Part shown: positions 1 to 37,320 of the stretch, piece by piece
Numbering within the stretch: position 1 is the first letter of the stretch
Layout of the letters: each line of letters starts with the position of its first letter
Made by a program: the position numbers and the translations under genes
Notes under the pieces: model-generated
The model's database searches: none
What the model was told of the DNA's origin: nothing
The model's input: only the letters and a program-made list of their open reading frames with translations
DNA from: a virus
Lineage: Duplodnaviria; Caudoviricetes
IMG/VR virus record: IMGVR_UViG_3300030376_002193
Coordinates: 1 to 37,320 of that record
Length of the DNA stretch: 37,320 nucleotides
Direction: 5' to 3' (one strand)

Positions 1-426
1 TTAAATGAAGTCATAAACGAAAGGAACAACCTTCGTGATGCCATGCAATCTTTGAAAACGCAAGAGGAAGAAAAACGTAAAGCCGATCTCGCAGATCAAG
101 AAAAATGGCAAGAGTTAAATACTGAATTATCAAAAGAAGTAGATAACTACAAACCCTATAAAGAAAAATGGGAAAGTATGGATGCCAAGATTAGAGAAAC
201 TGCTTTATCAAAACTTCCTGAATCTAAAAGAGAAAAATTTTCTAGTGTTGACACCGAAGTTTTACTAGATATTGTTCAAGAGTTTGCAGACGAGGAAAAC
301 AAAGTAAATCCTCCTGATAGACAAGGAACAGTACCTACTAAACAAATCACAGACTGGACAGATATGGATGCTGTGAACAGAAGAAGAAACTGGGGTGCGA
401 TACTAGAGTCATACATAAAAAGGTAA
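1..426 (+). CDS. Capsid scaffolding protein A (5'-truncated)
   Basis: Frame is open from base 1 (LNEVINERNNLRDAM...). Charged coiled coil directly upstream of the MCP. Its C-terminus W-T-x-M...RR-x-NW-x-x-I matches the 33924..34508 protein. Confidence 0.75.
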   Translation, partial: LNEVINERNNLRDAMQSLKTQEEEKRKADLADQEKWQELNTELSKEVDNYKPYKEKWESMDAKIRETALSKLPESKREKFSSVDTEVLLDIVQEFADEENKVNPPDRQGTVPTKQITDWTDMDAVNRRRNWGAILESYIKR

Positions 427-431
427 AATAA

Positions 432-1328
432 ATGGCTAAACATTATCAAGGTAGTCCAGTAACAACGACTACAGATCAACATTTTATTCCTGAAATCTGG
501 GCAGACGGAATCTATAAATACTTTGAACGTAAAACTGTATTCAGAGGTCTTGTAGACGATTATTCTGCTTTAGTAGGTGGTAAGGGATATGGAGATGCAA
601 TTAATATTCCAGAAATGAGTCTTATTAGTGCATCAGATAAAAGTGCTGGTTCAGACGTATCTTATGATGCAACTGCAACCACTACTACTCAACTTGCTAT
701 TAATAAACACAAGTACGTTGCAAAGTTATTTGAGGATGTAGCATTAATCCAATCTGAAGCTGACTTAGTTGCTAAGTATTCAAGAATGATGGGTGAGGCT
801 CTTGCTCGTCAAGTAGATGCAGATATATGGGCAGAATTAGATGGTTTAAATCAATCTCAAGCTCTTTCTGCTGACGATACGCTCACTGCTACTGTTTTTG
901 AATCTGCTTTAGCTACGTTAGGTGAAAATGACATTCCTTACATGGATGGTCAATGTGCTATGGTTGTAAACCCAACACTATTTGCAGATATACTTAACCC
1001 ATCTGCTGGTATAGCTCAATACTTTATTCGTAATGATGCTGTCGGTGAAGGAAATCGTGGACTACGTTCAGGTATGGTTGGATCACTTTACGGAATTGAC
1101 GTATATATGTCAAATACTGTATCGACTGCTGGAACAAGCTCTACAATTTCAGGTGCTATTTTCCACAAAAGTGCGTGTGCTTTTGCTTCTCAACAAGAAG
1201 TAAGAGTTCAGTCAGAATATTCTGTAGATGCTTTGGGAACTAAAGTAGTTTCCGATTTGTTATACGGAGTCAAACTAATTGATGATTCTGATAATAAAAG
1301 AGGTATTAAGTTTACTAACGTAGACTAA
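432..1328 (+). CDS. Major capsid protein A (HK97-fold, P22 coat-like)
   Basis: 298 aa with FIPEIW, GDAINIP, AKLFED, G-x-LYGIDVYMSN and DLLYGVK motifs. Follows the scaffold; homologous to 34519..35403. Confidence 0.9.
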   Translation: MAKHYQGSPVTTTTDQHFIPEIWADGIYKYFERKTVFRGLVDDYSALVGGKGYGDAINIPEMSLISASDKSAGSDVSYDATATTTTQLAINKHKYVAKLFEDVALIQSEADLVAKYSRMMGEALARQVDADIWAELDGLNQSQALSADDTLTATVFESALATLGENDIPYMDGQCAMVVNPTLFADILNPSAGIAQYFIRNDAVGEGNRGLRSGMVGSLYGIDVYMSNTVSTAGTSSTISGAIFHKSACAFASQQEVRVQSEYSVDALGTKVVSDLLYGVKLIDDSDNKRGIKFTNVD

Positions 1329-1344
1329 TACTTGGTATTACTCA

Positions 1345-1377
1345 TAACTATTGGGGGCGTTATGCCCCCTTTAGTTA
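1345..1377 (+). terminator. Stem-loop after MCP A (terminator or mRNA stabiliser)
   Basis: TAACTA-TT-GGGGGC-GTTAT-GCCCCC-TT-TAGTTA inverted repeat; T tract is short. Confidence 0.65.
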
Positions 1378-1390
1378 AACTAGGAATAAT

Positions 1391-1594
1391 ATGATACAAT
1401 ACTTTAAAAAACCTAATCTTGGTAAAGTTGAGAGACTAGAAGAAGAAACTTTAAAAAAACACCCTGAAAAATTAGAGGCTTTATTGGTCAAAGGATATGT
1501 AAGAGTTATGAGTGAAAGTGATGACTCTGAATATAAAGAACCATCTATAGTAAAGAAGGCTGTTAAAAAAGTTGCCAAGAAAATGAAAAAATAA
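1391..1594 (+). CDS. Small Lys-rich head-region protein
   Basis: AGGA RBS; positional counterpart of 35461..35622 (shared GY-x-x-V motif and Lys-rich tail). Confidence 0.6.
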   Translation: MIQYFKKPNLGKVERLEEETLKKHPEKLEALLVKGYVRVMSESDDSEYKEPSIVKKAVKKVAKKMKK

Positions 1595-1610
1595 TTAGAC
1601 CAAAGCACGA

Positions 1611-1640
1611 TCTCATTCACGCTTTGTCATAGCTTAGAGA
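1611..1640 (+). promoter_or_regulatory. Conserved structured leader motif, copy A
   Basis: CTC-ATTCAC-[GCT TTGTCAT AGC]-TTA-GAGA abutting the RBS; second copy at 35634..35664. Confidence 0.55.
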
Positions 1641-1649
1641 GGAAGAAAA

Positions 1650-1994
1650 ATGGCAGACCTACATACTCATTCAGTACAAGAAGCCTTAAACGCTACAGTT
1701 GGTGGTAAATGGACAGTAGCAACTGCTGGTACTGCTGGAAGCTCAGCAGACGTAGCAAACACAACTCACAAATCATTACACAGTAGCACTTCTATGATAG
1801 GCGTTTATTCTGCCGTAGAAGTGTATTTTAATTTTAGCACAACCACAACAGATGTTAATGCTAGCAATGATTTATTAATTCCAGCTAATACAAACTTTTT
1901 TTTAACAGTTCCTAGAGGATTAGGGAATACTGTTTATTTTAATTATAACTCTACTAGCACTACTACTGGTGCAGTAAGATTGGTGGAGATTTAA
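1650..1994 (+). CDS. Virion structural protein, probably capsid decoration
   Basis: 114 aa, Thr/Ser-rich and beta-rich; 88/114 identical by manual count to 35970..36314. Confidence 0.6.
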   Translation: MADLHTHSVQEALNATVGGKWTVATAGTAGSSADVANTTHKSLHSSTSMIGVYSAVEVYFNFSTTTTDVNASNDLLIPANTNFFLTVPRGLGNTVYFNYNSTSTTTGAVRLVEI

Positions 1995-1995
1995 T

Positions 1996-4900
1996 ATGAG
2001 TTTCTTTGGAGGTATGGGTCAATCTGCCATTAAAAACCTCGGTAATGGTGGAACAATGGATGGGGATGTTACAGTAACTGGGGATTTAACTGTCAATGGT
2101 GGAATAGCACTCACATTATCAGAGGTATTACAAGGCACATCAACTATAGATGTCAATAACACCGAAGCTCTATTAGTTAGAAAGAATGGAGATGGTGGCG
2201 ATGTATTTATTGTAGATACTACAAATTCACGAGTTGGAGTAGGCGTAGCACCTACGCATAATTTAACTGTCAATAACCAAATTGGAATTAAGCGAGATGG
2301 TACAGATGCTTATGGAACTTTGACATTTGATGGTTCTGGATTTGTAATTGACCAAAGTACTTCTGGTTATGCACCTTTAAAAATTAAATCTAACGGCACA
2401 GAAGTAGCTAGGTTTACATCTACTGGCTTGGGAATTGGAACTAGTTCTCCGTCAACATTGTTAAATTTGGAAAGTGCTACTTCAACTGCTATAACAGCAG
2501 AAAATACTGGGAATGGAGCAGTTGCTTTAAACTTAGATGCTAATAGGTCTGGAGCAGATCAAGGTCTAGGAAATATTAACTTTAAATGGAATGGAACTTC
2601 TGTTGCTCAAATATCTGGGGCAAGTGGTGCTGATACAACCAATAAAGACGATGGTCAAATTCAATTCAGTACGATGTCTGGAGGTTCTAGCTCTGTTAAT
2701 ATGACTCTTGATAAAGATGGAAGTGTAGGAATTGGAACAACTACGCCTTCAAGTTTTGATTCAGAAGCTAATAATTTAGTAGTTGGTAATGGTTCTGGAG
2801 ATAATGGAATTACAATATTTACTGGCTCAAGTGCTGGACATCATGGTTCAATTTTTTTTGGAGATGCAACTGGTACACCAAAACAAGGTCAAATAAGGTA
2901 TGAGCAAAACAATGAAGTAATGTCTTTCCATACCAATGCTACTGAAAGAATGAGAATAGACTTAAATGGCAAAGTCGGAATTGGAACTAGTTCTCCGTCA
3001 GTACCAATGCACATTTACGCAAATGACACTACAAAATGGCAAAGCACTATTGAGCAAGATGGAGCTGGAGATGCATCGTTAAAGTTTTCTATAACTGGAG
3101 CAAGAGATTGGTTGATAGGAGTAGATAATTCAGATGGCGATAAATTTAAAATTAGTTATGATGCAAATGATTTAAATGATTTAACTACCTTAACTCTAGA
3201 TACATCTGGAAATGTAGCAATTGGGACAACACCCAATACAGATTTTAAAACATATTTATACGACAACACTAATAGTGCAGATGCGTGGGTTTTAAATGTT
3301 TATCAAGACGGTGCTGGTGGAAATGGAGCTAGAATTGATGTAGACAGTACAGATGCTTCTGATTTTATTTTACAATGTGGGGCAAATGGTGGCTCTACCG
3401 AAGTTTTAAATGTCATGGCGAATAATCGAGTTGGAATTGGAGTAACTACTCCAGACACTAATATGCACATTCATAAAGCAAGTGCTGGTTCTGTTGATTC
3501 CTATTCTGAATCTGTTTTAACACTTGAAAATAGTGGCAATACAGCTCTAAATATTTTAAGTGGAAATGCTAATCATGGGCAAATAGCTTTTGGAGATGAT
3601 GGTCAAAATGATGATGGCATACTAGGATATGATCAAGCTACAAATAAAATGTATATTCTTACAAACCACAGTAATACTAAAAAATTTGTTGTAGATGCAA
3701 GTGGGAATATAGGGATTGGAACTGACTCTCCAAACTCAAATTTACACGTTCATACAGATATTGGAGATGCTAGAATAACTATAGATAGTGCTACAAATTC
3801 AGATGCTCAATTAAAGTTTGCAAATGGGGGTGGTAATTCTTGGAGTGTTTTTTCCGATGGTTCGGCTACAAACGATCCATTAATCTTTTATGATTATGCC
3901 TCATCAACCTCTATGATGACTTTAAATAATGGAAAAGTAGGAATTGGAACTGTTTCTCCACAATCTAGTCTCGAAATCGAATTGAGTGGAGATACTGGTA
4001 CATATTTTGAAGCTGGTGGAAGTGGAAATGATGCATCTGATTTAAGACATTTATTAATGACAGCATCGACTACAACTAATGCTGGAGATACTCACGCTAT
4101 TAATGCTGAATCTGGAACTGGGGTTTTATTATTACAAACAAGTAATACAACAAGGTTAAAACTAGATGCCAACTCTCGCATTTCTCTTAGTAATAATGAT
4201 GGCGGTTCTAATAACACGACTTTTGGGAATTTAGCTGGAGTTGCCTTAACAACTAATGGAGATAGAAATTCTCTTTTTGGTCATTTAGCTGGAAATGATA
4301 TTAGTAGTGGTGCAGAAAATACTTTAATGGGTTATAATGCTGGTGAAAAAATTACAACAGGGTTGTATAATACAGCGATAGGTAGTCAAGCTTTTGTAAC
4401 AAATGTAGATGGTGATTTTAATACTGCTATTGGATATGCAAGTTTATATAGTTTTGAAGCTGGAAGTGATGGTCATGGGAATAATGTAGCTATAGGTTCA
4501 AATGCGTCTTTTCATCTTGACTCTGGTCAGAATAATACAATGGTGGGAACAAGTGCTGGTCAATCTTCTGCTGGAACAATTACTTATACTGGTAATACTG
4601 GTTTAGGTTATAAAAGTTTATTTGCAGTTACTACTGGTGGATATAATATAGCGATTGGTAACTCAGCTGGTGATAATATAACTACTGGAAGTTCTAATAT
4701 CCATATTGGTAGTTTAGCTGGAGATAATATTTCAGACGCTGGACATATAATTGCTATTGGAGATAGTGCAGTTAGAACTGGAACTACAACTACTGGGGCA
4801 AATGGAACAGTTGCTGTTGGAAGTTATGCTTTGGAAGGTCTTACATCTGGAGCAAGAAATTTAGCAATAGGGTATCAATCTTTAGATGCTCTTACACAAG

Positions 4901-9824: not shown

Positions 9825-10027
9825 AAACAACATTAGACACTGACTATAACGCTTTTGAAGTTATATGTAGATGTAAAGAGATTGCAGAACACTTAGATGT
9901 AACAAATATTATAATAGATAATCAATGTTATGAAGAAAAAGAAATGTTGTTGGAATTAATAAGTAAAATTAAAAGTTTAGAACTGGAGATTGTTGACTAT
10001 CCCCATAGACCAGAGGCAGAAGCATGA
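9803..10027 (+). CDS. Hypothetical acidic protein
   Basis: ORF track; overlaps both neighbours. Confidence 0.55.
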   Translation: MEKITEIETTLDTDYNAFEVICRCKEIAEHLDVTNIIIDNQCYEEKEMLLELISKIKSLELEIVDYPHRPEAEA

Positions 10028-11010
10028 GCACATATTACGAATCATATTGCAACACAACCACAGACTTATCGTTTGTAGAGCCATATTTAAGTGAATACGA
10101 CCATAAAAAAGTTTTAGCTAGTAACTTTACCACTACGGACACAACGAACCTCTATCAGCTTAATAATACAGGGTATATTTCTCAACTTTACAAAGATGGC
10201 GTTGAGATGACTTCCGTAACAGATACGCCAAACGCTGATAATGAATATAATTATTCTAGTAGCACCGATTCTTTTCAGTTTTTTCTAGCATCTTCATCTG
10301 TATCGGCATTAAATAGCGCAGTTTTTGAAGCATCTAGAGATTGGAGTGATTTAAAAACAGAAGCAGTAAAAAGAGCAAGTGACTTTATTCGTTCATTATT
10401 ACCATTTCCAATTTATAAAAACAAAGGTGTTGGAACTTCTGACGCAGTAGCAAATGACTATCCAGAAATAATAGTGCGTAGTACGGCAGTAATGGCTGTA
10501 GAATCGCTGATTAGACCTTATGATGTAGATAAAGCTGACCAAATAAAAAGTCAGGCTATAAACGACCAAAATACAGGTTGGTTGGATATGCTAAGAAAGG
10601 GTGAAATTACATTATATTCTAGCGAATCAGAACAAAAGCATAAAGGTGTATTAAAAGACGTATCTGTAAACGCAAATACAACTGGTGGAATTGTAGATGT
10701 AAAAGGTCGAGCTAGTACACAATGGGATGCTATAAAAATTATTATATCAGCTGGGGGAACAATTACAGCAGGTTCTGCAAATACAAGCGTGACATATTCT
10801 AGTTTTACTAGAAATGAAAAAGGTTTAAAAATGAACCAAGATACAACTGAAGAAATTATTGATTGTGGATGGCAATCCGTAGGGCATGATATGTGGGTAA
10901 GATTTTCACCTGGAGTATATACTACAAACGATGAATATGAATTAGAAGTTAGTGGCGTTGTAGATCAAGCTTTTACGCCTATTAAAACAGTGAGAACAAG
11001 CAGATATTAA
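10024..11010 (+). CDS. Virion protein, probable head-tail adaptor
   Basis: N-terminal SYCNTTTDL and ...KRASDFIRS...YPEII...WLDML pattern of adaptors; lies before the tail genes. Confidence 0.5.
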   Translation: MSTYYESYCNTTTDLSFVEPYLSEYDHKKVLASNFTTTDTTNLYQLNNTGYISQLYKDGVEMTSVTDTPNADNEYNYSSSTDSFQFFLASSSVSALNSAVFEASRDWSDLKTEAVKRASDFIRSLLPFPIYKNKGVGTSDAVANDYPEIIVRSTAVMAVESLIRPYDVDKADQIKSQAINDQNTGWLDMLRKGEITLYSSESEQKHKGVLKDVSVNANTTGGIVDVKGRASTQWDAIKIIISAGGTITAGSANTSVTYSSFTRNEKGLKMNQDTTEEIIDCGWQSVGHDMWVRFSPGVYTTNDEYELEVSGVVDQAFTPIKTVRTSRY

Positions 11011-11011
11011 T

Positions 11012-11434
11012 ATGGCAATAACTTTTACAAATACAATACATGATAAAATAATAGATAGTTTAGCAACTATTATTCATAATGAATTTAATATTCCTATTAA
11101 GTATAGCGAACACAGAGGAAATCAATCTTTCTTATTAACGCCAGAATCAGATGCTTTTATTGAACATTTAAATAGTGGAATAACACGAGAATACACTGTA
11201 AATATAGAATATCAACTAAAATCAGCAGGAGAATATTCTCTAAATAATTTAAAACAAGTCAGTAATATTATGGAAAGATTTAAAAGGTTAGTTTTTAATA
11301 ATATTAGCTATTCAAACGGAGATGTTTGGTTTGATGCTAGAGTAACAAGTATTGAGTACATTCAAGATGAAGATGATAAAACTCTTTTAAAAGGTCTTGC
11401 TGTATTTAATTGCACCAATATAGAAATAATATAA
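11012..11434 (+). CDS. Probable tail terminator/completion protein
   Basis: 140 aa, alpha/beta pattern; lies before the tail tube gene. Confidence 0.55.
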   Translation: MAITFTNTIHDKIIDSLATIIHNEFNIPIKYSEHRGNQSFLLTPESDAFIEHLNSGITREYTVNIEYQLKSAGEYSLNNLKQVSNIMERFKRLVFNNISYSNGDVWFDARVTSIEYIQDEDDKTLLKGLAVFNCTNIEII

Positions 11435-11444
11435 GGAATCTATA

Positions 11445-11624
11445 ATGAAGAATAAAAAAAAATACAAGGCAACTTCAACATTTAATGTAGATGCCTTTGA
11501 TAATTACAAAGGGTTGGGCAACGATAATCATGCAAAGCTATGCAAAGGTAAAATTGTTGAGCTTGATTTTGAACCAGCTGAATTACTTAAAAATAAAATG
11601 CTCAAAACAGTAGGAGAAAAATAA
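11445..11624 (+). CDS. Hypothetical protein (59 aa)
   Basis: AAGGA RBS; MKNKKKYKATSTF...TVGEK; TAATG overlap with the tail tube gene. Confidence 0.55.
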   Translation: MKNKKKYKATSTFNVDAFDNYKGLGNDNHAKLCKGKIVELDFEPAELLKNKMLKTVGEK

Positions 11625-12637
11625 TGGCAACATATTCAGGAAATCAATTCCTTGTCTATATAGGTCAACATGCAGCAAATCAAGGTATCTTAACTCAAAA
11701 CGCTGATAATGCTCTACATAGATGGAATTTAGAAACAGTAAATGATATAGACTTTAGCGCAGGAGTTACACAAGAGTTTATCCCAAGAACTGGTCAAAAA
11801 GTCTTTAGAGAAGAAGATTTGTTTACAACTCAAAATGGTGGCTCTTATACAATGGCTTTTGACTACTTAGTGGATTCAGAAGAAATATTGCAATTGTTAC
11901 TAAGATCAGCAATGGAAGTAGATGGAACTACGGGAGTTTGTCACATGACTGGAAATCAAGGGCATTCTGCTCAATACGCAGTTAATACATCAGCTCCAGA
12001 CTTTTCATTACAAGTTAGTATTGTAAATCCAGATTCTGACCAAACTCGATTATTGCACTCTGCAGTAGTTACAGAGCTTACTTTGTCAATGGACACTGGT
12101 ACAAATGGTGGTAGATTGAGGGCTAGTGGAACATTGTACTCTGGTTATAGACCTACTGTTGGAACAAACGCAGTTTCTGATGGTTCTACAGCTTCAAATA
12201 CAGATTATGCTTTTGGGTTATTTGATTGTCACGCAGTTGAAATTGCTGGAACTCAAGTTACGTGTAAATCTTTTTCTGTAACTATTTCAAACCCAGCAGA
12301 AAGAGTTGGTTATCAAATTGTAAATAGTATAGATGGGGAACCAACTGATTACATAAGGAATCGAGCTGATGTCACTGGCTCTATAAATGTAAAAATGGAT
12401 GATACTTCTGTAGCTCAATTACCATTCTATCTAGCTGGTACTTCAAAAGGTATTCTAGTTGGAGATGAAGGAACTTCAGGTGGTGGTAGTGCATCAGATA
12501 TATTTATAGAAATACCAACTGCAAAATACACTGGACATAATGTTGATTTAGGTTCAGAAGGTGGTGTTTTTATTGAATTACCATTTCAAGCAACTGCGAC
12601 TGGAACAAATAAACTAATAACAGTTCTAGCAACTTAA
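11624..12637 (+). CDS. Major tail tube protein
   Basis: 337 aa, beta-rich (VTELTLS, SFSVTISN, VTGSINV, IELPFQA); upstream of chaperones and tape measure. Confidence 0.75.
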   Translation: MATYSGNQFLVYIGQHAANQGILTQNADNALHRWNLETVNDIDFSAGVTQEFIPRTGQKVFREEDLFTTQNGGSYTMAFDYLVDSEEILQLLLRSAMEVDGTTGVCHMTGNQGHSAQYAVNTSAPDFSLQVSIVNPDSDQTRLLHSAVVTELTLSMDTGTNGGRLRASGTLYSGYRPTVGTNAVSDGSTASNTDYAFGLFDCHAVEIAGTQVTCKSFSVTISNPAERVGYQIVNSIDGEPTDYIRNRADVTGSINVKMDDTSVAQLPFYLAGTSKGILVGDEGTSGGGSASDIFIEIPTAKYTGHNVDLGSEGGVFIELPFQATATGTNKLITVLAT

Positions 12638-24096: not shown

Positions 24097-24350
24097 AAAA
24101 AAAAGAAAATATAATTGAATATATATTAAGAACTCAAGAGTATTTCAGATTTAGAAAGTTTGAAAGAAAAAAATACAAATGTAGAACTGAAAATGTAGAT
24201 GCTTATATTTTTTTATGTAGTAACTGTGACAGTTTATGGTCACGTGTTGAAGCTTATATAAATACAAGAAGATGGTTAAAATATTCTGAACAAATAATGC
24301 CAAAAATAGGCAAAAAAAATAAAACTTGTCCAGATTGCAAAAAAAAATAA
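24093..24350 (+). CDS. Hypothetical Zn-ribbon protein
   Basis: CSNC...CPDC. Confidence 0.6.
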   Translation: MKKKENIIEYILRTQEYFRFRKFERKKYKCRTENVDAYIFLCSNCDSLWSRVEAYINTRRWLKYSEQIMPKIGKKNKTCPDCKKK

Positions 24351-24367
24351 AATAAGGAGCAAAAACA

Positions 24368-25465
24368 ATGTTTAATACACCTTCAATGAAAGAGATAAAT
24401 CAAATAAAACAAAATAATTATAATGTAATATCAACTTTTAGTGGTTGTGGAGGTAGCTCTTTAGGTTATAAAATGGCTGGTTATAAAGTTTTATGGGCAA
24501 ATGAGTTTATTCCTGCAGCTCAAGAAACATATAGAGCAAATCATAAAAGCACTTTTTTAAATACTAAGGATATTAGAAGTGTTACAGGAGAAATGATTAA
24601 AAATGAAGCTAGAGTAAATGAAATAGATATTTTTGACGGATCTCCCCCTTGTGCTAGTTTTTCAATGTCAGGGCAACGTGAAAAATTATGGGGCGAGGTA
24701 AAAAAATATAGCGATACAAAACAAAGAGTTGATGATTTATTTTTTGAATATACTAGATTAATAAAAGAACTGAAACCAAAAATATGCATTGCAGAGAATG
24801 TGGCAGGGCTTACTTTTGGAAAAGCAAAAACTGAAGTTTTAGGTCAAAATCAATATGATATGTTTAATTCTCAAGAAAAAACAATATTATACCAAATTGA
24901 ACAACACGGATATAATGTTAGTTATAGAATTTTAAATGCAAAAGATTTTGGAGTGGCTCAAAATAGACCTAGAATTTTTATAGTTGGAGTTAGAAATGAT
25001 TTAAACTTGTCGCCAAGTTTTCCATTGCCATTAAATAAAAAACATGCAACATTTAAAGATGTTGTAAAAGACTTAATCCAAACAGAAGATGAAATAAAAG
25101 AAAGCTTAATTGATCCAAAATATGAAGTTTATAAATATATCTTAAAACTTAAACCAGGTGAATGTGGTTCTGACTATCACAAAACTGGATCATATTTTAA
25201 TTTAAAAAGAATGGAATGGGATAAGCCTTGTGGTACTATACTGCAAATGGAGGGTGGACCGAGCGTAGCTTGTGGACATATTCACCCAGAAAGAAACGGA
25301 AAGCTTACAATAAAAGAACTAAAAAGACTTCAAGGATTTCCAGATGATTTTAAATTAACAGGATCGTTTCAACAAAAATGGGAAAGGATTGGTAGGTCGG
25401 TTGCACCACCAGTTATGTATTATTTATCAAAAACAATAAAAAATAATGTATTAGATAAGTCATAG
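24368..25465 (+). CDS. C5-cytosine DNA methyltransferase-family enzyme, predicted carboxymethyltransferase
   Basis: Motif I FSGCGG, IV GSPPC-x-x-FS, VI ENV, VIII Q-x-R-x-R, IX RLQGFPD; motif X reads IGRSV instead of IGN(A/S)V. Confidence 0.85.
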   Translation: MFNTPSMKEINQIKQNNYNVISTFSGCGGSSLGYKMAGYKVLWANEFIPAAQETYRANHKSTFLNTKDIRSVTGEMIKNEARVNEIDIFDGSPPCASFSMSGQREKLWGEVKKYSDTKQRVDDLFFEYTRLIKELKPKICIAENVAGLTFGKAKTEVLGQNQYDMFNSQEKTILYQIEQHGYNVSYRILNAKDFGVAQNRPRIFIVGVRNDLNLSPSFPLPLNKKHATFKDVVKDLIQTEDEIKESLIDPKYEVYKYILKLKPGECGSDYHKTGSYFNLKRMEWDKPCGTILQMEGGPSVACGHIHPERNGKLTIKELKRLQGFPDDFKLTGSFQQKWERIGRSVAPPVMYYLSKTIKNNVLDKS

Positions 25466-25473
25466 GAGCAGAA

Positions 25474-26187
25474 ATGAAAAAAGACAACGTTTTACCAAAA
25501 AAAAAGTGGGAGTTTGATGAAAGTGTTACTAGCGTATTTGATAATATGCTAGAAAGATCAATCCCTCAATATTTAGAAATGAGAAAATTAGTTTCTAATT
25601 TATCAAAACAAGTGATAGAGAAAAACGATTTACCAACAAATACAATTATAGATATTGGATGCAGTAAGGGTAGAGCTTTAGAGTCAGTGCATAAAATATT
25701 TCCTAGTTTTAATTATATAGGAGTTGAAGTTAGTGAATCAATGTATTTATACTGTAAAGAAAACTATAAGCAACACAATATAAGGTTTTACAATAATGAT
25801 TTAATTGATTGGTACCCTCAAACAAAACCAGATAACTCACTAACATTGTCAATATTAACGCTTTGCTTTATTCCAATAGAATATAGGTCGTATGTTTTAA
25901 AAAATATTTATAATAATTTATGTATAGATGGCTCTCTAATAATCGTTGAGAAATGTTTAAGTAATAATTATGACACTTCTGAGTATTTTGACAACGTTTA
26001 TTATGATTTAAAAAGCAAAAACGGATATACACAAGAACAGATTAAATCAAAAAGAAAATCCCTTGAAGGTGTCTTAGTACCACTTACAACATCATTTAAT
26101 GAAGAATTGTTTAAGCAAGTAGGATTTAAAAAAATAGATATATTTTGGAAATACTTAAATTTTACAGGGTGGATTATGACAAAATAA
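25474..26187 (+). CDS. cmoA: Carboxy-SAM synthase (CmoA-like)
   Basis: WEFD-x-x-V-x-x-VFDNML-x-RSIP-x-Y, DIGCS-x-G, LTL-x-FI, EK and K-x-x-NGY...I-x-x-KR-x-x-LE-x-V; the Arg aligns by eye with E. coli CmoA R199. Confidence 0.85.
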   Translation: MKKDNVLPKKKWEFDESVTSVFDNMLERSIPQYLEMRKLVSNLSKQVIEKNDLPTNTIIDIGCSKGRALESVHKIFPSFNYIGVEVSESMYLYCKENYKQHNIRFYNNDLIDWYPQTKPDNSLTLSILTLCFIPIEYRSYVLKNIYNNLCIDGSLIIVEKCLSNNYDTSEYFDNVYYDLKSKNGYTQEQIKSKRKSLEGVLVPLTTSFNEELFKQVGFKKIDIFWKYLNFTGWIMTK

Positions 26188-26229
26188 ACTAACTCTTATA
26201 TAACTCTTTAAAAAAAATAAATAAAGAGT

Positions 26230-26273
26230 TTGCATGTATTATTATTGTTTAGTACATTACTATGTGAATAACA
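26230..26273 (+). promoter_or_regulatory. Sigma70-type early promoter P2 with conserved leader
   Basis: TTGCAT (26230-35), 17 bp, TACATT (26253-58); 23-nt identity with P1; inverted repeat AACTCTTTA...TAAAGAGTT at 26202..26230. Confidence 0.8.
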
Positions 26274-26302
26274 TTAACAAACTAAACAAAACGGAGCAGG
26301 AC

Positions 26303-27322
26303 ATGACAAAAGGAACTTTTAATTTAGAAAGAGGATACGGAATAGAGATAGAATTTTTAAGACCTTCTACTCTCTCTCAAAGAATAATAGCTAAGGCGAT
26401 TAATCGACAATTAACACTTCCAGGTACACCACTTAATAGAAATGGTTGCCAGGTTGAGTCTTACAACCACAATACTGTAAACAACTGGAAGATCGTAGGA
26501 GATGCATCTGTTTATACTACAAACTCAGATCGTGGATATACAGGACACAATGAAATTGTTTCACCAATTTTATATGGCTATCAAGGGTTAAAACAATTAG
26601 AAGCGGTTTTAGAAGTTTTAAATACTCTTAATTGTAAAGTTAATTACCATTGTGGAATACACGTTCATCACGATGTTACAAAAAAAGTTTTAGAAGGCAG
26701 AAAGCAAACAACTACTTTTTTAACCAACTTAGTAAAATACATTGCTAAGTACGAACATTTAATTTATAAGCTAGTTTCACCTTCAAGATTAGATCAAAGA
26801 AGATACTCAACACCAGTCAGACAAGATTTTGCAGAGTATCGTAGCGATTTAATAGATGTAAAGAAATTAAAAAAGTCTATTAAGTCAGATGTAAACAGAA
26901 AAGTAGACAACGATGGACTTAATCTAAACAACGGACATTACGCTATAAGACCAAGAACACAAAAGCGTAGAGCTTGTGGATTAAATCTTTTAAATATTTG
27001 GACTAGAGGTTCTGTTGAATTTCGCTATCATAACGGAAGTTTAAATTTTAAAAAGATTACATCCTGGATAGTTTTTACACAGGCGATTGTTAACACTGTT
27101 GAAACTACAAAATCAGTTCCAATGAATTTTGTTCCCAATAATGTAAAAGGACTTACTAGATTCAGAAAGTCTTTAGGGTTCGTCAGTACATCAAATAGAA
27201 GTCCTCTTGTAAAATCTACTAGCAATTATATGCTTAAAAGATTCAAGCAGTTATCAAATAGAGAAACAGATTACAGAAGACATAACCAATACAACCACGT
27301 CAGAGATGGCGTGGTAGTATAA
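26303..27322 (+). CDS. Putative amidoligase (COOH-NH2 ligase, Amidoligase_2-like)
   Basis: GIEIEF, WKIVGDASV, EIVSPIL, CGIHVH and GSVEFR motifs; start moved to ATG 26303 (GGAGCAGG RBS; 26234 lies inside the promoter). Confidence 0.85.
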   Translation: MTKGTFNLERGYGIEIEFLRPSTLSQRIIAKAINRQLTLPGTPLNRNGCQVESYNHNTVNNWKIVGDASVYTTNSDRGYTGHNEIVSPILYGYQGLKQLEAVLEVLNTLNCKVNYHCGIHVHHDVTKKVLEGRKQTTTFLTNLVKYIAKYEHLIYKLVSPSRLDQRRYSTPVRQDFAEYRSDLIDVKKLKKSIKSDVNRKVDNDGLNLNNGHYAIRPRTQKRRACGLNLLNIWTRGSVEFRYHNGSLNFKKITSWIVFTQAIVNTVETTKSVPMNFVPNNVKGLTRFRKSLGFVSTSNRSPLVKSTSNYMLKRFKQLSNRETDYRRHNQYNHVRDGVVV

Positions 27323-27341: not shown

Positions 27342-28235
27342 ATGTGTGGATTAGCAGGAGTAATACTAAAACAAAAAAATAGAACAAATGTAGAGTTGAA
27401 AAAAATAACTACATCTTTTAAAAATATGCTTACAGAAGCAGATACAAGAGGAGGACACGCTACGGGATTTGCTTTAATAGATAAGTACGGAGATTATTTA
27501 TTATGTAAAAAAAATAAAGATGCGTTTGATTTCTTAAAAGATAATCAAGTAAATAGTAATATTGATTCTATTACAAATGACGTTATATGTTTAATGGGAC
27601 ATACTAGATACGCTACTTTAGGATCGCCAGATATTAATAAAAACAATCACCCTATTAGAGCTGGAAAAACCATAGGTACTCATAATGGATCAATACACAA
27701 CCATAAAGAGCTATTTAGAAAGTTTGATATGGAAAGATATGCTCAAGTAGATTCAGAAGCTATTTTCAGACTTTATGAAACATCAGACAATGCGAAAGAT
27801 TTTTCAGAAAATAGATTGCCACTGGTTAGAGGTCGAGTTACTATTGTTTGGGCAGATTTAGAGTATGCAGATTACATATATATAGTCAAAGCAAATAATC
27901 CACTAGAAATGGTTTATATTCCAGAGTTAGATGTTCTAGCTTATGGAAGCACTTTAGATATAGTAAAATCTGGTAAATGGGGTGATTTTGAGCCAATTAG
28001 TATAAAAGCAAATACTATGATGAGAGTTAATACTAAAACATTAAACAAAAGAACAAAGTCAATTAAAATTATAGAACCAATTAAAAAGAAGTCTTATGTT
28101 TATAATAAAGATTTGGGAATTTATCAAAACACAGTAAAAAGATTTGTTCCTAGATATTCATATATTGAAAAACAAAGAGAGCTTTTTAAGGCTTTTAAAT
28201 CCAGCGATGGATCAACAATTAGGAAGATAAAATGA
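27342..28235 (+). CDS. Class II (Ntn) glutamine amidotransferase
   Basis: MCG N-terminal nucleophile, RG-x-x-ATG, GHTRYAT, N-x-HP, HNG and VDSE motifs. Confidence 0.9.
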   Translation: MCGLAGVILKQKNRTNVELKKITTSFKNMLTEADTRGGHATGFALIDKYGDYLLCKKNKDAFDFLKDNQVNSNIDSITNDVICLMGHTRYATLGSPDINKNNHPIRAGKTIGTHNGSIHNHKELFRKFDMERYAQVDSEAIFRLYETSDNAKDFSENRLPLVRGRVTIVWADLEYADYIYIVKANNPLEMVYIPELDVLAYGSTLDIVKSGKWGDFEPISIKANTMMRVNTKTLNKRTKSIKIIEPIKKKSYVYNKDLGIYQNTVKRFVPRYSYIEKQRELFKAFKSSDGSTIRKIK

Positions 28236-28852
28236 AAAAGCATTTATTTGTTTACGGAACACTAAAAAAAGGTTTTCATAATCATATCTTTTTAAAAGAT
28301 TGTAAAATGACAGGACACTTAAAATTAAAACACTATGCCTTAGTTGATCTAGGGCATGGGTTTCCATATATGATTGAATCAACAAAGCACGAATGGGTTT
28401 ATGGAGAAGTCTATGAAGTCAATAGAGCTATTTTAAAAAGAATTGATTTATTAGAAGGCGTGCCATATCATTATCAAAGACAGAATATGTTATTAGATAC
28501 GCCAGAGGGTAAACCAATTAACACATATTACTATGTGTCTAATTTAAAAGATGTTGAACATCTTAAAGTAAAAGATAATTACTGGGCACCTAGTAAAGCT
28601 TATAGTACAGTATTTGATGTAATTGTTGATGGTCGTGAATATTCTGATACTGCAGATAAGATAGTATTTCATATGAGATTTTTTGATGGCGACAGAACAC
28701 CAACTAACAAAGATTATATGAAACTTGTAAAAGCTAGAAGTCACTTACCTATAAATATAGATAGCGAAAATTTATTTCTTTTAGATTGTATTCATTATGG
28801 AATAGTAAAATATATAGATTATAAGTATATTAATAACGTGAATAAACAATAA
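28232..28852 (+). CDS. Gamma-glutamylcyclotransferase (AIG2-like) with C-terminal extension
   Basis: LFVYGTLKKG, VYGEVYEV and IDLLEG-x-x-x-x-Y-x-R motifs. Confidence 0.85.
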   Translation: MKKHLFVYGTLKKGFHNHIFLKDCKMTGHLKLKHYALVDLGHGFPYMIESTKHEWVYGEVYEVNRAILKRIDLLEGVPYHYQRQNMLLDTPEGKPINTYYYVSNLKDVEHLKVKDNYWAPSKAYSTVFDVIVDGREYSDTADKIVFHMRFFDGDRTPTNKDYMKLVKARSHLPINIDSENLFLLDCIHYGIVKYIDYKYINNVNKQ

Positions 28853-28863
28853 CAGGAGCTTTT

Positions 28864-29355
28864 ATGAATATATTTATATTAAACGAACACCCTCAAACTG
28901 CAGCTAAAATGCAACACAATAAGCATGTAGTTAAGATGGTTTTAGAGTCTACTCAAATGTTATGTGGCGCATTTGATTCAACGCATAAACCACCATACAA
29001 AAGAACACACTATAATCATCCTTGTTCTATTTGGACTAGAGAAAGCAAAGAAAATTATATGTGGCTATTAATACACGCTTTTAGTTTAGCAATAGAATAC
29101 ACGCACAGATATAACAAAGTGCACGCATCTCAAAAAGTAATAAACTGGTGCTATAAAAACATAGACAAAATAAATTTTCCAAAGCAAAAAAGAACTCCAT
29201 TTGCTTTAGCTATGCCAGACCAATACAAAACAAGCGATGCTGTAGAATCATATATTTATTACTATATAAGCGAAAAATTACAAAACGCTCAATGGAAAAA
29301 TAGAGAAAAACCATTTATTTTTAATAAAGATACTCTAGGTTTGATTAAGAACTAG
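28864..29355 (+). CDS. Pyrimidine-dimer DNA glycosylase (DenV)-related protein
   Basis: MNIF...KHVVKMVLESTQML...YK-x-TH-x-NHPC-x-x-W...NY-x-WL...EYT-x-RY-x-K-x-H...AMPD-x-YK. Confidence 0.7.
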   Translation: MNIFILNEHPQTAAKMQHNKHVVKMVLESTQMLCGAFDSTHKPPYKRTHYNHPCSIWTRESKENYMWLLIHAFSLAIEYTHRYNKVHASQKVINWCYKNIDKINFPKQKRTPFALAMPDQYKTSDAVESYIYYYISEKLQNAQWKNREKPFIFNKDTLGLIKN

Positions 29356-29388: not shown

Positions 29389-29418
29389 GGGATAGTACCG
29401 CATCACTATCCCTTTTTT
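29389..29418 (+). terminator. Rho-independent terminator ending the early region
   Basis: GGGATAGT-ACCGCATC-ACTATCCC followed by TTTTTT. Confidence 0.85.
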
Positions 29419-33923: not shown

Positions 33924-34508
33924 ATGTCTGAAGAAACAAATACACAGGGCGTGGAAAACCAACCAAAGGCTTACGTTGAGAGACCAGTGGTGGAAAAACC
34001 TATATCAACAGAGATGGCAACTGAAAGCCAGGAAAAAGACCTTGAATTACCTGATTATGGTCAATTAGTGCAGGAAAGCAAAAAGTACAGGAAACGTGCT
34101 CAAGAATCAGAAGCAAAACTTGAAAAGCTAGTTAAGAAAGGCGAAGCAGAAAGAACAAAGCAAATGGAAGAACAAAACCAATGGCAACAACTAGCTGAAG
34201 AAAGAGCTCTAAAAATTCAAGAACTAGAACCTATTGTAGAGCAATTTAAAAAAGATGAAGCTCAACAAAGAGATTCTATATTGAGTACACTAAGCGAAGA
34301 AGATCGAGAGCAGTTTGGTGATTTACCAATTACAAAGCTCAGAATCTTAGCAAATAAATTAAACCCTAATGAAAAAAGCGTTCCTAATACAAGTGGAACT
34401 CCAGCAAGAGCTGTTAATCCTTCTAATAAAAATTGGACTACAATGACCGATAATGAAAGAAGATCGAACTGGGCAGATATTGTAAAGGGTTATGCGCTTA
34501 GAAAATAA
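33924..34508 (+). CDS. Capsid scaffolding protein B
   Basis: ESKKYRKRAQ coiled coil; directly before MCP B. Confidence 0.8.
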   Translation: MSEETNTQGVENQPKAYVERPVVEKPISTEMATESQEKDLELPDYGQLVQESKKYRKRAQESEAKLEKLVKKGEAERTKQMEEQNQWQQLAEERALKIQELEPIVEQFKKDEAQQRDSILSTLSEEDREQFGDLPITKLRILANKLNPNEKSVPNTSGTPARAVNPSNKNWTTMTDNERRSNWADIVKGYALRK

Positions 34509-34518
34509 GGAGTCTTAA

Positions 34519-35403
34519 ATGGCTGATTATCACGGTTTTTCGGGTGATGTAACCCAAAAAACAGACATTGATGTATTCGTTCCTGAACTATGGGGTGACG
34601 GGGTACTTCGATATTTTGAAAAGTCTTTAGTTTTTAAACCATTCTTTGATGATTATTCTAGTTTGGTTCAAGGGCGTGGAGACGTTTTACACATTCCAAC
34701 AATGCAAGAAGTTGCAAGTGCTACAAAAGCAGCAAATGATTCAGTAGATTATACTGCTAATGTTGAAACAGATATTGATTTAGCAATAGATCAACACGTT
34801 TATGCAGCTAAGCTATTTGAAGATATTGCAATGGTACAAAGCAACGAACAGCTTTTTGATAAGTATGCTCAATCTATGGCTTATGCTCTAGGAAAAGCAG
34901 TTGATACAAAGATAGAAGAATTATTGCAAACTATTGGAACAACTCAAACTCTAGCTGCAGACAACACAATGTCAAACGCTGATGTTGAAACTGCTCTAGG
35001 CACTTTAATGGCTAATGATATACCAGCTGATGAATGTGCTTTCTTTGTTAATCCTCTTATTTATGCTGACTTAATGAACTCAAAAGCATTTGTAACGAAT
35101 AACTCTGGCGCAGGTGTTGGTTTTGGTAATGATAACGCAGTAATGCAAACTGGTCTAGTTGGAAACCTTTTTGGTATTCCAGTAATGACTAGCTCTTTAA
35201 TTCCTACAACAACTTCAACAGGAATTGAAGCTGCATATCTAGTACATAAATCAGCTATTGCAGTAGCAGTTCAGCAGGATATAAGAGTACAATCTGAATA
35301 CGATGTATCTTATCTAGGAACTAAAGTTGTGGCTGACATCATTTATGGTGCAGTAATTACTACTTCAAATCATGTTAAAGGAATAGAATTTTTAAATCCT
35401 TAA
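34519..35403 (+). CDS. Major capsid protein B
   Basis: FVPELW, GDVLHIP, AKLFED, G-x-LFGIPV and DIIYG motifs; homolog of 432..1328. Confidence 0.9.
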   Translation: MADYHGFSGDVTQKTDIDVFVPELWGDGVLRYFEKSLVFKPFFDDYSSLVQGRGDVLHIPTMQEVASATKAANDSVDYTANVETDIDLAIDQHVYAAKLFEDIAMVQSNEQLFDKYAQSMAYALGKAVDTKIEELLQTIGTTQTLAADNTMSNADVETALGTLMANDIPADECAFFVNPLIYADLMNSKAFVTNNSGAGVGFGNDNAVMQTGLVGNLFGIPVMTSSLIPTTTSTGIEAAYLVHKSAIAVAVQQDIRVQSEYDVSYLGTKVVADIIYGAVITTSNHVKGIEFLNP

Positions 35404-35421
35404 ACCTTGATAAAAAATATT

Positions 35422-35449
35422 GGGTGGTGTTAATTCGCCACCCTTTATT
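35422..35449 (+). terminator. Stem-loop after MCP B
   Basis: GGGTGGTG-TTAATT-CGCCACCC-TTTATT. Confidence 0.65.
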
Positions 35450-35460
35450 AAAAGGACATT

Positions 35461-35622
35461 ATGATAATACTTAAAAAAGATAAACATTACGAACATACCC
35501 TAGATACTGATAAAGCTTCAAAAATGGTTCAAAATGGCTATGAAGTTGTAAAGGGTAAGACTATATTAGACAAAGCAAAAAAAGAAGTAAAAACAAAGAA
35601 AAAGCCTATTAAGAAAAAGTAA
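35461..35622 (+). CDS. Small Lys-rich head-region protein (53 aa)
   Basis: AAGGA RBS; MIILKKDKHYEH...NGYEVV...KKPIKKK. Confidence 0.6.
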   Translation: MIILKKDKHYEHTLDTDKASKMVQNGYEVVKGKTILDKAKKEVKTKKKPIKKK

Positions 35623-35633
35623 CAAAAATATGG

Positions 35634-35664
35634 CTCGTTCACGGTTAACCATTAACCTTAGAGA
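35634..35664 (+). promoter_or_regulatory. Conserved structured leader motif, copy B
   Basis: CTC-GTTCAC-[GGTTAA CCA TTAACC]-TTA-GAGA directly before an AGGAG RBS. Confidence 0.55.
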
Positions 35665-35676
35665 TTAGGAGAATCA

Positions 35677-35961
35677 ATGGCAACATCAAATCTACACAAT
35701 TATACAACTCAAGAAGCTCAAAATAGACTCGGTGGTGGTGGTTACGATTATGTAACAAACGCAACTGTAAACTCTCATACTTATGTGGCAATCCAAGCAT
35801 TATCAGTTGATTGCGTAGTTACAGCCACGTCAGTTGATACCGATATTTGGGACACATTAACAAGCGTAACAATTTTAGCAGGTCAAACTATTTATGGTGA
35901 ATGGTCAAGCGTAGCAGTAGCCAATGGTGATTTTGCTTTAGTATATAGAAAATCTAGCTAG
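35677..35961 (+). CDS. Virion structural protein (decoration-like)
   Basis: Beta-rich; N-terminal NLHNYTTQEAQN resembles the start of the 114-aa proteins. Confidence 0.6.
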   Translation: MATSNLHNYTTQEAQNRLGGGGYDYVTNATVNSHTYVAIQALSVDCVVTATSVDTDIWDTLTSVTILAGQTIYGEWSSVAVANGDFALVYRKSS

Positions 35962-35969
35962 AGGATAAT

Positions 35970-36314
35970 ATGGCAAATCTACATAAAAGATCGGTTCAAG
36001 AAGCATTAAATGCGACAGTTGGAGGTAATTGGACAGTAAATTCTGCTGGTACTGCAGGTTCAAGTGCTAGTACAGGAAACACAACTCATTTATCTCTAGC
36101 CACTATGACTTCAACAATCGGAATACATTCCGCAGTAGAAATTTATTTTAATTTCACAACTACTGCTACTGATGTAAACGCTTCAAACGATATGATAATT
36201 CCTAAGAATACCCTTACTTTTTTAACAGTTCCAAGGGGATTAGGAAATACAGTATATCTAAATTATAATTCAACTAGCACAACGACTGGTGCTGTAAGAG
36301 TAGTGGAGATATAA
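35970..36314 (+). CDS. Virion structural protein, homolog of 1650..1994
   Basis: 88/114 residues identical by manual count. Confidence 0.65.
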   Translation: MANLHKRSVQEALNATVGGNWTVNSAGTAGSSASTGNTTHLSLATMTSTIGIHSAVEIYFNFTTTATDVNASNDMIIPKNTLTFLTVPRGLGNTVYLNYNSTSTTTGAVRVVEI

Positions 36315-37320
36315 TGCAAAGTTCAATGCTAAGAACTATTGTCGAAGATTTCGGTAATGGTGGAACAATAGATGGCGACCTAGTAATAACAGGTGATCTA
36401 CAAGTTGATGGTGGTGGATCACTTAGCTTTGATGAGATAATAGAAGGAACGCAAGTAATAGATGTAACTAGCACCGAAGCTCTATTAGTTAGAAAGAATG
36501 GAGATGGTGGCGATATATTTATTGTTGATACTACAAATTCAGAAGTAGATGTTACTGGTAAATTAAAAATTGATGCAAATGCCACTTCTGGAACAGCAAT
36601 CGAGATTGATTCTGAAACGCAAGATGGTCAAGGTATTTATATGGATATTAGCCAACAAACAAGTGGCTATGGAATTAATATAAATGATGTAGGTACAAGC
36701 AGAACAACTGGAGGAATATTATACATAAACTCTAATCAATCTGGTACTGGCACTAGAAATCTAGTTGAAATAATAAACAATCATATTAATGCAACTGGCA
36801 CAACTGCTTTAAAGATTAAACAAGATTCTGCTCAATACGCTATGGCTATTGACCAAAATGGAAACGCCAATGCAATTAGAATTGACTCTGATGCAACTAC
36901 AAATGTAGGAGCAATTCAAGCTCATGTAGATTCTTTAACAACTGGAAGGATTGCATATTTCTATTCTAATTCTAGCGACACATCTACTAGAGGATTGGTT
37001 AAAATTGTTAATGATCACGCTAGTGCAACTGGTACAACAGCCTTAGAAATACAGCAAGATTCTACTGGGTTAGCTTTACATTCGACTGGTACGATCCTTA
37101 TAGACCAATCTGCTGGTACATCTAATTCAGCAGTTTTAAGACTTGAAGCAGATAGAGGTAGTGCAGATCAAGATAGTGGAGAAATAAGATTTTATAATCA
37201 AGGTGGAAGTGATCACGATTACGCTAGAATTGTAGGCGTAAGAGGTGGTGCAGATAACTCTGGATATTTACAGTTTAGAACAAGTGAAGCTGGAACAGAA
37301 GGCACTAGAATGACTATTTC
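36314..37320 (+). CDS. Fibre protein B (3'-truncated)
   Basis: MQSSMLRTIVEDFGNGGTIDGDLVITGDL...TEALLVRKNGDGGDIFIVDTTNS is homologous to the N-terminus of 1996..5976, then diverges; appears open to the window end. Confidence 0.8.
   Translation, partial: MQSSMLRTIVEDFGNGGTIDGDLVITGDLQVDGGGSLSFDEIIEGTQVIDVTSTEALLVRKNGDGGDIFIVDTTNSEVDVTGKLKIDANATSGTAIEIDSETQDGQGIYMDISQQTSGYGININDVGTSRTTGGILYINSNQSGTGTRNLVEIINNHINATGTTALKIKQDSAQYAMAIDQNGNANAIRIDSDATTNVGAIQAHVDSLTTGRIAYFYSNSSDTSTRGLVKIVNDHASATGTTALEIQQDSTGLALHSTGTILIDQSAGTSNSAVLRLEADRGSADQDSGEIRFYNQGGSDHDYARIVGVRGGADNSGYLQFRTSEAGTEGTRMTI

Follow-up and report, generated by a model that had tools for sequence, protein, structure and literature searches.

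A cmoX-cmoA gene pair in a phage genome predicts 5-carboxymethylcytosine in DNA, probably without a CmoY cap

Two adjacent phage genes, cmoX and cmoA, match the CmoX-CmoA system for DNA carboxymethylation. By analogy with its characterised member, it is very probable that the phage makes carboxy-SAM (Cx-SAM) and writes 5-carboxymethylcytosine (5cxmC) into its own DNA, where the base probably stays uncapped. The window, by which we mean the whole stretch of DNA that was analysed, is the entire record G000, a linear virus contig of 37,320 nt with a completeness rating of 100%, and it covers the whole gene order. Genes for terminase, capsid, tail tube, tape measure, and replication are found in it, all on the plus strand. 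The public runs in which the phage is best represented were marine or seawater metagenomes; no RNA run is listed among those containing it, which has no bearing on expression.

The chemistry itself was described for Synechococcus phage S-B43 by Yang et al. (Nat Commun 2025; PMC12783734), as the initial annotation had suspected that it might be. According to the available text of that paper, CmoA of S-B43 makes Cx-SAM and CmoX (SpCmoX) uses it to carboxymethylate cytosine at GC, giving 5cxmC, with Arg350 contacting the carboxymethyl group or carboxylate of Cx-SAM. Wild-type SpCmoX accepted Cx-SAM only, the R350N variant was dead, and the modified product resisted HhaI in vitro. A third enzyme, the AMP-forming, asparagine-synthetase-like ligase CmoY, adds glycine, and the DNA of S-B43, the only natural genome for which that text gives an analysis of the 5cxmC product, contained the glycine amide, with free 5cxmC absent. 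The window pair is a further example of this known system, and its predicted chemistry repeats the December 2025 result.

The gene cmoX (24368-25465, plus strand) encodes a 365-aa homologue of the C5-cytosine methyltransferases (MTases), a predicted carboxymethyltransferase, which matches PF00145 (E 1e-63) as a full-length C5-MTase. The enzyme had been annotated as complete, with a motif X reading WERIGRSVAPP, and both points held: Arg343 is encoded by AGG at 25394-25396 (plus strand). The alignment that had been called for places this residue on M.HhaI Asn304, and it also falls on SpCmoX Arg350; the alignment to M.MpeI spans residues 45-241 only, not reaching N374. The catalytic Cys95 (24650-24652, plus strand) lies in the SPPC motif of residues 92-95 and aligns with SpCmoX Cys98 and M.HhaI Cys81, in the numbering of PMC12783734. 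The S-B43 CmoX structure (8YF3) was both the top PDB match by sequence (E 4e-61) and the first-ranked fold match, with TM scores of 0.80/0.87 for an AlphaFold model of pLDDT 92.9. Aligned pairwise with SpCmoX, the window enzyme has the same residue at all six positions F25, E47, F48, D69, C98, and R350, and these are all the cofactor and catalytic positions of SpCmoX named in the available text of PMC12783734. Both published search markers of CmoX, SPPC and the Arg350 equivalent, are present, as is cmoA in the neighbourhood, so that by published sequence criteria the window pair belongs to the CmoX-CmoA system. The window enzyme shares the motif order, the catalytic Cys, and the fold with ordinary C5-MTases (M.HhaI, M.HaeIII), but those have Asn at motif X, the mark of a canonical 5mC-MTase, where the window has Arg343; Asn-type enzymes had cmoA nearby in 0 of 13 sampled loci.

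The Arg in motif X and the gene pair are neither chance nor an assembly error, because Arg343 is invariant across 103 aligned sequences and the region recurs in other assemblies. Locus L165, possibly of the same source, is 100% identical to the window across 17,095 nt, and X2 record 12, a contig of another study, covers 25384-25534 with zero differences, bridging the cmoX/cmoA junction.

The second gene, cmoA (25474-26187, plus strand), starts 8 nt past the cmoX stop, and its 237-aa product, a predicted carboxy-SAM synthase, matches phrog_4752 (E 5e-63) and TIGR00740, with 1IM8, 4GEK, and 4IWN as the best PDB matches. The TIGR00740 match (E 3e-40) reaches 138.4 bits against a cut-off of 193.3 and thus stays below the score of the bacterial CmoA equivalog. 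In the part of PMC3663124 available, Arg199 of E. coli CmoA forms a salt bridge to the carboxylate, and its counterpart, counted along the 4IWN alignment, is Arg194 (26053-26055, plus strand) within KRKSLE at residues 193-198. The fold and the equivalents of E. coli Tyr39, Asp62, Gly64, Ser66, Glu164, and Arg199 are kept, whereas Asp89 is replaced by Glu and Asn132 by Ile. The CmoA homologue 8 nt downstream with its KRxxLE arginine had been annotated correctly; the arginine had also been taken as support for function, and here the residue is indeed present but has little diagnostic value. Among 135 distinct phage homologues, the Arg199 column holds Arg in 54 and Glu in 58. With Glu in the proven S-B43 enzyme and Arg in only 54 of the 135 homologues, phage CmoA proteins cannot be recognised by this arginine; at the sequence level it supports, and does not define, the function. 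The window CmoA also differs from the bacterial enzyme of the cmo5U tRNA pathway in its partner, which is a DNA enzyme: no CmoB-family Pfam match was found among the 51 window ORFs, in agreement with the initial annotation.

The predicted making of Cx-SAM by the phage and carboxymethylation of its DNA, as proposed in that annotation, is supported at the sequence level, being the chemistry of S-B43 with both CmoX markers present. By analogy with S-B43, CmoA would convert host SAM and prephenate into Cx-SAM; CmoX would flip the target cytosine, and Cys95 would attack C6; Arg343 would hold the carboxylate of Cx-SAM while the carboxymethyl group is transferred to C5. In both systems cmoA lies next to the gene for a C5-MTase homologue that has SPPC, the motif-X Arg, and the same fold, and the window CmoX keeps all the named cofactor residues. 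However, the identity to the only proven enzymes, 37% for CmoX and 27% for CmoA, counts against this reading. The window differs from S-B43 in lacking CmoY and a ParB-like partner, in its gene order (cmoX-cmoA against cmoA-cmoY-cmoX), in the recognition region of CmoX, and in keeping the Arg199 equivalent, which is absent from SpCmoA. S-B43 is also a cyanophage of 214 kb, whereas the window represents a 37-kb phage with tape-measure and tail-tube genes.

The motif-X Arg and cmoA co-occur tightly. Single-protein scans of viral_contigs with cmoX and the amidoligase discussed below returned no relative, and alignments were needed instead. Homologues picked by patterns outside motif X gave 157 rows, 156 with an ORF, and 131 distinct proteins; after removal of L165 and of loci with <900 nt downstream, 104 were left, three of them without a residue at the column. 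A cmoA gene was present in the locus of 74 of the 78 Arg-type enzymes and of none of the 23 Asn- or Met-type enzymes (Fisher p 5e-19, a value overstated by the non-independence of relatives). Among the four exceptions, L277 carries a cmoA truncated by the contig end. The Arg-type loci L179 and L180 show no cmoA match in roughly 3 kb of downstream sequence; their enzymes may draw Cx-SAM from the host. In L168:5122-7098, CmoX and CmoA form a single ORF of 658 aa in the contig sequence. Close CmoX relatives of 42-46% identity (L242, L244, L271, L272, and their kin) have Asn at motif X and no cmoA; they are likely ordinary methylases, judging from their sequences, inside or beside the CmoX clade and would be useful as controls. 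Ten further C5-MTase homologues (L297, L299-L302, L304, L312, L314, L316, L317) carry Met in place of the motif-X Arg and lack cmoA.

These counts bear on two other readings. The enzyme might methylate with SAM, mainly or in addition, yielding 5mC or a mixture. Such a mixture of 5mC and 5cxmC is possible because engineered Lys/Arg variants keep SAM-dependent methylation: M.CviPI Y205K/R and M.MpeI N374K share with the window enzyme a cationic residue at the cofactor pocket, which lets them use Cx-SAM, and they retain methyltransferase activity with SAM, which in E. coli is about 400-fold more abundant than Cx-SAM (PMC13288465, available portion). The 3-4 of 78 Arg-type loci without cmoA point in the same direction. 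However, those variants are engineered and come without their own Cx-SAM synthase, the natural SpCmoX took Cx-SAM and not SAM (PMC12783734), and cmoA is adjacent in the window and present in 74 of the 78 Arg-type loci; we regard methylation with SAM as unlikely. Alternatively, CmoA might work independently of CmoX, either draining SAM or providing Cx-SAM for host tRNA modification. The best-matching CmoA, that of Alcaligenes phage Afa-NA1, has no C5-MTase match within 6 kb, and PMC12783734, in the text available, raises SAM depletion by CmoA as an open question. The 8-nt coupling, the L168 fusion, and the co-occurrence of Arg and cmoA tie CmoA to CmoX and make a separate role extremely improbable, albeit compatible as a side effect. 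The Afa-NA1 gene (L005:5977-6729) has genes for NUDIX, dTMP kinase, and thymidylate synthase next to it and may serve another use of Cx-SAM.

Beyond the initial annotation, we found that the CmoY ligase is missing. SpCmoY gave no tblastn match to the contig at E 10, PF00733 (asparagine-synthetase-like) gave none while its positive controls matched, an HMM of 50 CmoY ORFs reached a best E of 0.59, and CmoY of L166 gave no match in a search run without a positive control. A match of the first CmoY HMM proved to be cmoX itself, owing to a CmoX-CmoY fusion from L270 among its sequences, and the cleaned HMM found nothing. The fusion, apparently natural, is 861 aa long in the contig sequence at L270:about 10001-12400. 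With CmoY not found, the window does not fit the three-step CmoA-CmoX-CmoY pathway. Loci without the ligase are also implied by the published candidate counts of 5,615 CmoX and 4,257 CmoA against 2,251 ligases (PMC12783734, available text), and cmoY was seen in at least 20 of our 74 loci with Arg and cmoA, a lower bound set by short contigs. In a tree built from 22 selected rows, the window CmoX groups at 100/100 support with its nearest relative, L166 (78% identity), in which cmoY lies between cmoX and cmoA. L167 has cmoY, whereas its sister L213 does not; the two pairs indicate that cmoY is gained and lost among close relatives. The window CmoA is 70% identical to that of the ligase-less L006 and 64% to that of L166, which might suggest a recombinant origin of the ligase-less cassette, while the CmoA tree does not settle the sister of the window. 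As the contig yielded no gene for the CmoY ligase, the end product is likely to be 5cxmC without a cap.

A ligase could nevertheless have gone unseen, lying in a missing part of the genome, having diverged too far, or coming from a co-infecting cmoY phage. A piece of the genome may be missing, as the linear contig lacks repeats at its ends and carries two divergent head modules; in run X1 its first 2.7 kb has a depth of about 7-16, compared with 14-24 further in, and the close relatives L166 and L167 do have cmoY. Against this stand the negative searches by tblastn, PF00733, HMM, and L166 CmoY, and a window gene order that closes on itself. In relatives, cmoY, where seen, lies within about 3 kb of cmoX, and L213 and L006 lack it in long loci too. 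We consider capping by an unseen ligase highly improbable. The head modules are divergent copies at the two contig ends (window 43-2229 and 33924-37318), with identities of 28% for the scaffold-like protein, 43% for the capsid, 77% for a 114-aa gene, and 50% for the start of a tail protein; relatives carry either capsid type singly. Together with the shallower first 2.7 kb, they suggest that two strains were probably joined in the assembly.

Directly downstream of cmoA on the same strand lie genes for a glutamine-synthetase-type amidoligase (26303-27322), an Ntn glutamine amidotransferase (GATase; 27342-28235), and a gamma-glutamyl cyclotransferase (GGCT; 28232-28852). The amidoligase and GATase might replace CmoY and amidate 5cxmC on DNA, since a carboxylate-amine ligase suits the chemistry. 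The order cmoX-cmoA-amidoligase recurs in L006, L169, and L171, and in comparison with L018 the divergent block spans the amidoligase and GATase (56-71% nucleotide identity) before identity returns to 87-98%. A single clade for the three cmoX-cmoA amidoligases was not rejected (p-AU 0.54), whereas one for the GATases of cmoX-cmoA phages was (p-AU 8e-6; quick trees of 22 rows in both cases). Co-occurrence is also poor: cmoA was found in only one of 38 close amidoligase loci, and the amidoligase in only 3 of the 74 loci with Arg and cmoA and in one of 80 loci of another set. In 10 loci the triad is opposite in orientation to the replication genes, a conserved promoter-like stretch, weak in the window, precedes the amidoligase, and similar cassettes of other phages are hypothesised to be cell-wall-modifying modules in the portion of PMC5498523 available. 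On these grounds we largely reject the amidoligase as a pathway member; amidation by these enzymes appears very unlikely, and the triad probably lies outside the modification pathway. If the amidation were real, the second step would be carried out by a ligase unrelated to CmoY, and this orphan phage module would gain its first DNA substrate. The triad is followed by a pyrimidine-dimer glycosylase-like gene (28864-29355) and a terminator-like hairpin (29389-29412).

The cmoX-cmoA pair occupies a slot, between the replication genes and the amidoligase, that is swappable among relatives, another feature that the initial annotation did not contain. Among 39 loci (L006-L044), 38 carry an amidoligase with an identity of 38% or more, and in 17 the stretch running from replication gene to amidoligase is collinear. 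In these 17, counted with any duplicates, the slot holds a glycosyltransferase in nine, thymidylate synthase/dUTPase in five, an N6/N4-methylase in two, and CmoX-CmoA in one; the glycosyltransferases are of the TAGT family, five with an epimerase and four without. The DNA of L018 is 87-94% identical to the window on either side of the slot, yet has a glycosyltransferase inside. The left edge is marked by an RBS-like AAGGAG (24354-24361, plus strand) common to L018, after which, at about 24360, similarity ends, and similarity resumes near 26188 in an intergenic stretch (26188-26302, plus strand) conserved in L006 and L018. This stretch is promoter-like in L006 and L018 and weak in the window (26230-26258, 3/6 and 4/6), where a promoter scan, with 66 sites against 62.9 +/- 8.2 by chance, did not list it. 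The slot families are tied by name to DNA modification or nucleotide supply. It is not established from the sequences that all slot alleles modify DNA, because no TET/JBP or thymidylate synthase was found in five glycosyltransferase-allele records, two of them with terminal repeats, in searches of which that for TET lacked a true positive control.

Several further observations concern the slot. Its glycosyltransferase is accompanied by a small unknown protein, with or without the epimerase, in L007:7926-9900, L011, L018:6057-7234, L019, L027, and L037. Other class I methyltransferases, faintly CmoA-like, are found in the slot at L020:7657-8493 and L035:8011-8793, adjoining its glycosyltransferase or thymidylate synthase. 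One contig of run X6 joins window 24322 to 26204 across 17 other letters, at 85% likeness, and might represent a possible empty-slot allele. A literature search, with most subscription papers outside its reach, found natural CmoX only in PMC12783734 and no description of the slot.

The target of the window CmoX may also differ from that of S-B43. Its recognition region departs from SpCmoX after a conserved Thr, and because of this difference the GC specificity of the S-B43 enzyme cannot be assumed. Judging from the alignments, relatives have this region in mosaic form: over residues 266-309 the window enzyme agrees with P0003 at 35 of 44 positions and with the otherwise closest P0002 at 24 of 44. 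The L166 and L006 enzymes differ in their recognition regions too. In word counts of the window, GC is over-represented (1.34), CG is under-represented (0.55), and GGCC, CCGG, CGCG, and CATG are avoided; L018, with its glycosyltransferase allele and without the cassette, has the same profile, which makes word counts uninformative about the target motif. Avoidance of GGCC, CCGG, and CGCG is as strong in relatives without the cassette and gives no sign of long-term protection. A bulky acidic base would be expected to block restriction enzymes whose sites contain the modified base.

The finding adds modestly to what is known of how phages might disguise their DNA. On balance, we lean towards a natural genome whose final base is free 5cxmC, written at some motif that is not GC, with the cassette as one allele of a swappable slot. 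The window is a candidate for a natural genome that leaves 5cxmC uncapped, whereas the single measured genome had the glycine amide only. A CmoX with a different recognition region could serve as a carboxymethylation tool with another target. Near-identical genomes swap CmoX-CmoA, CmoX-CmoY-CmoA, glycosyltransferase, N6/N4-methylase, and thymidylate-synthase alleles at one place, and this phage group would offer a convenient set for comparing DNA disguises.
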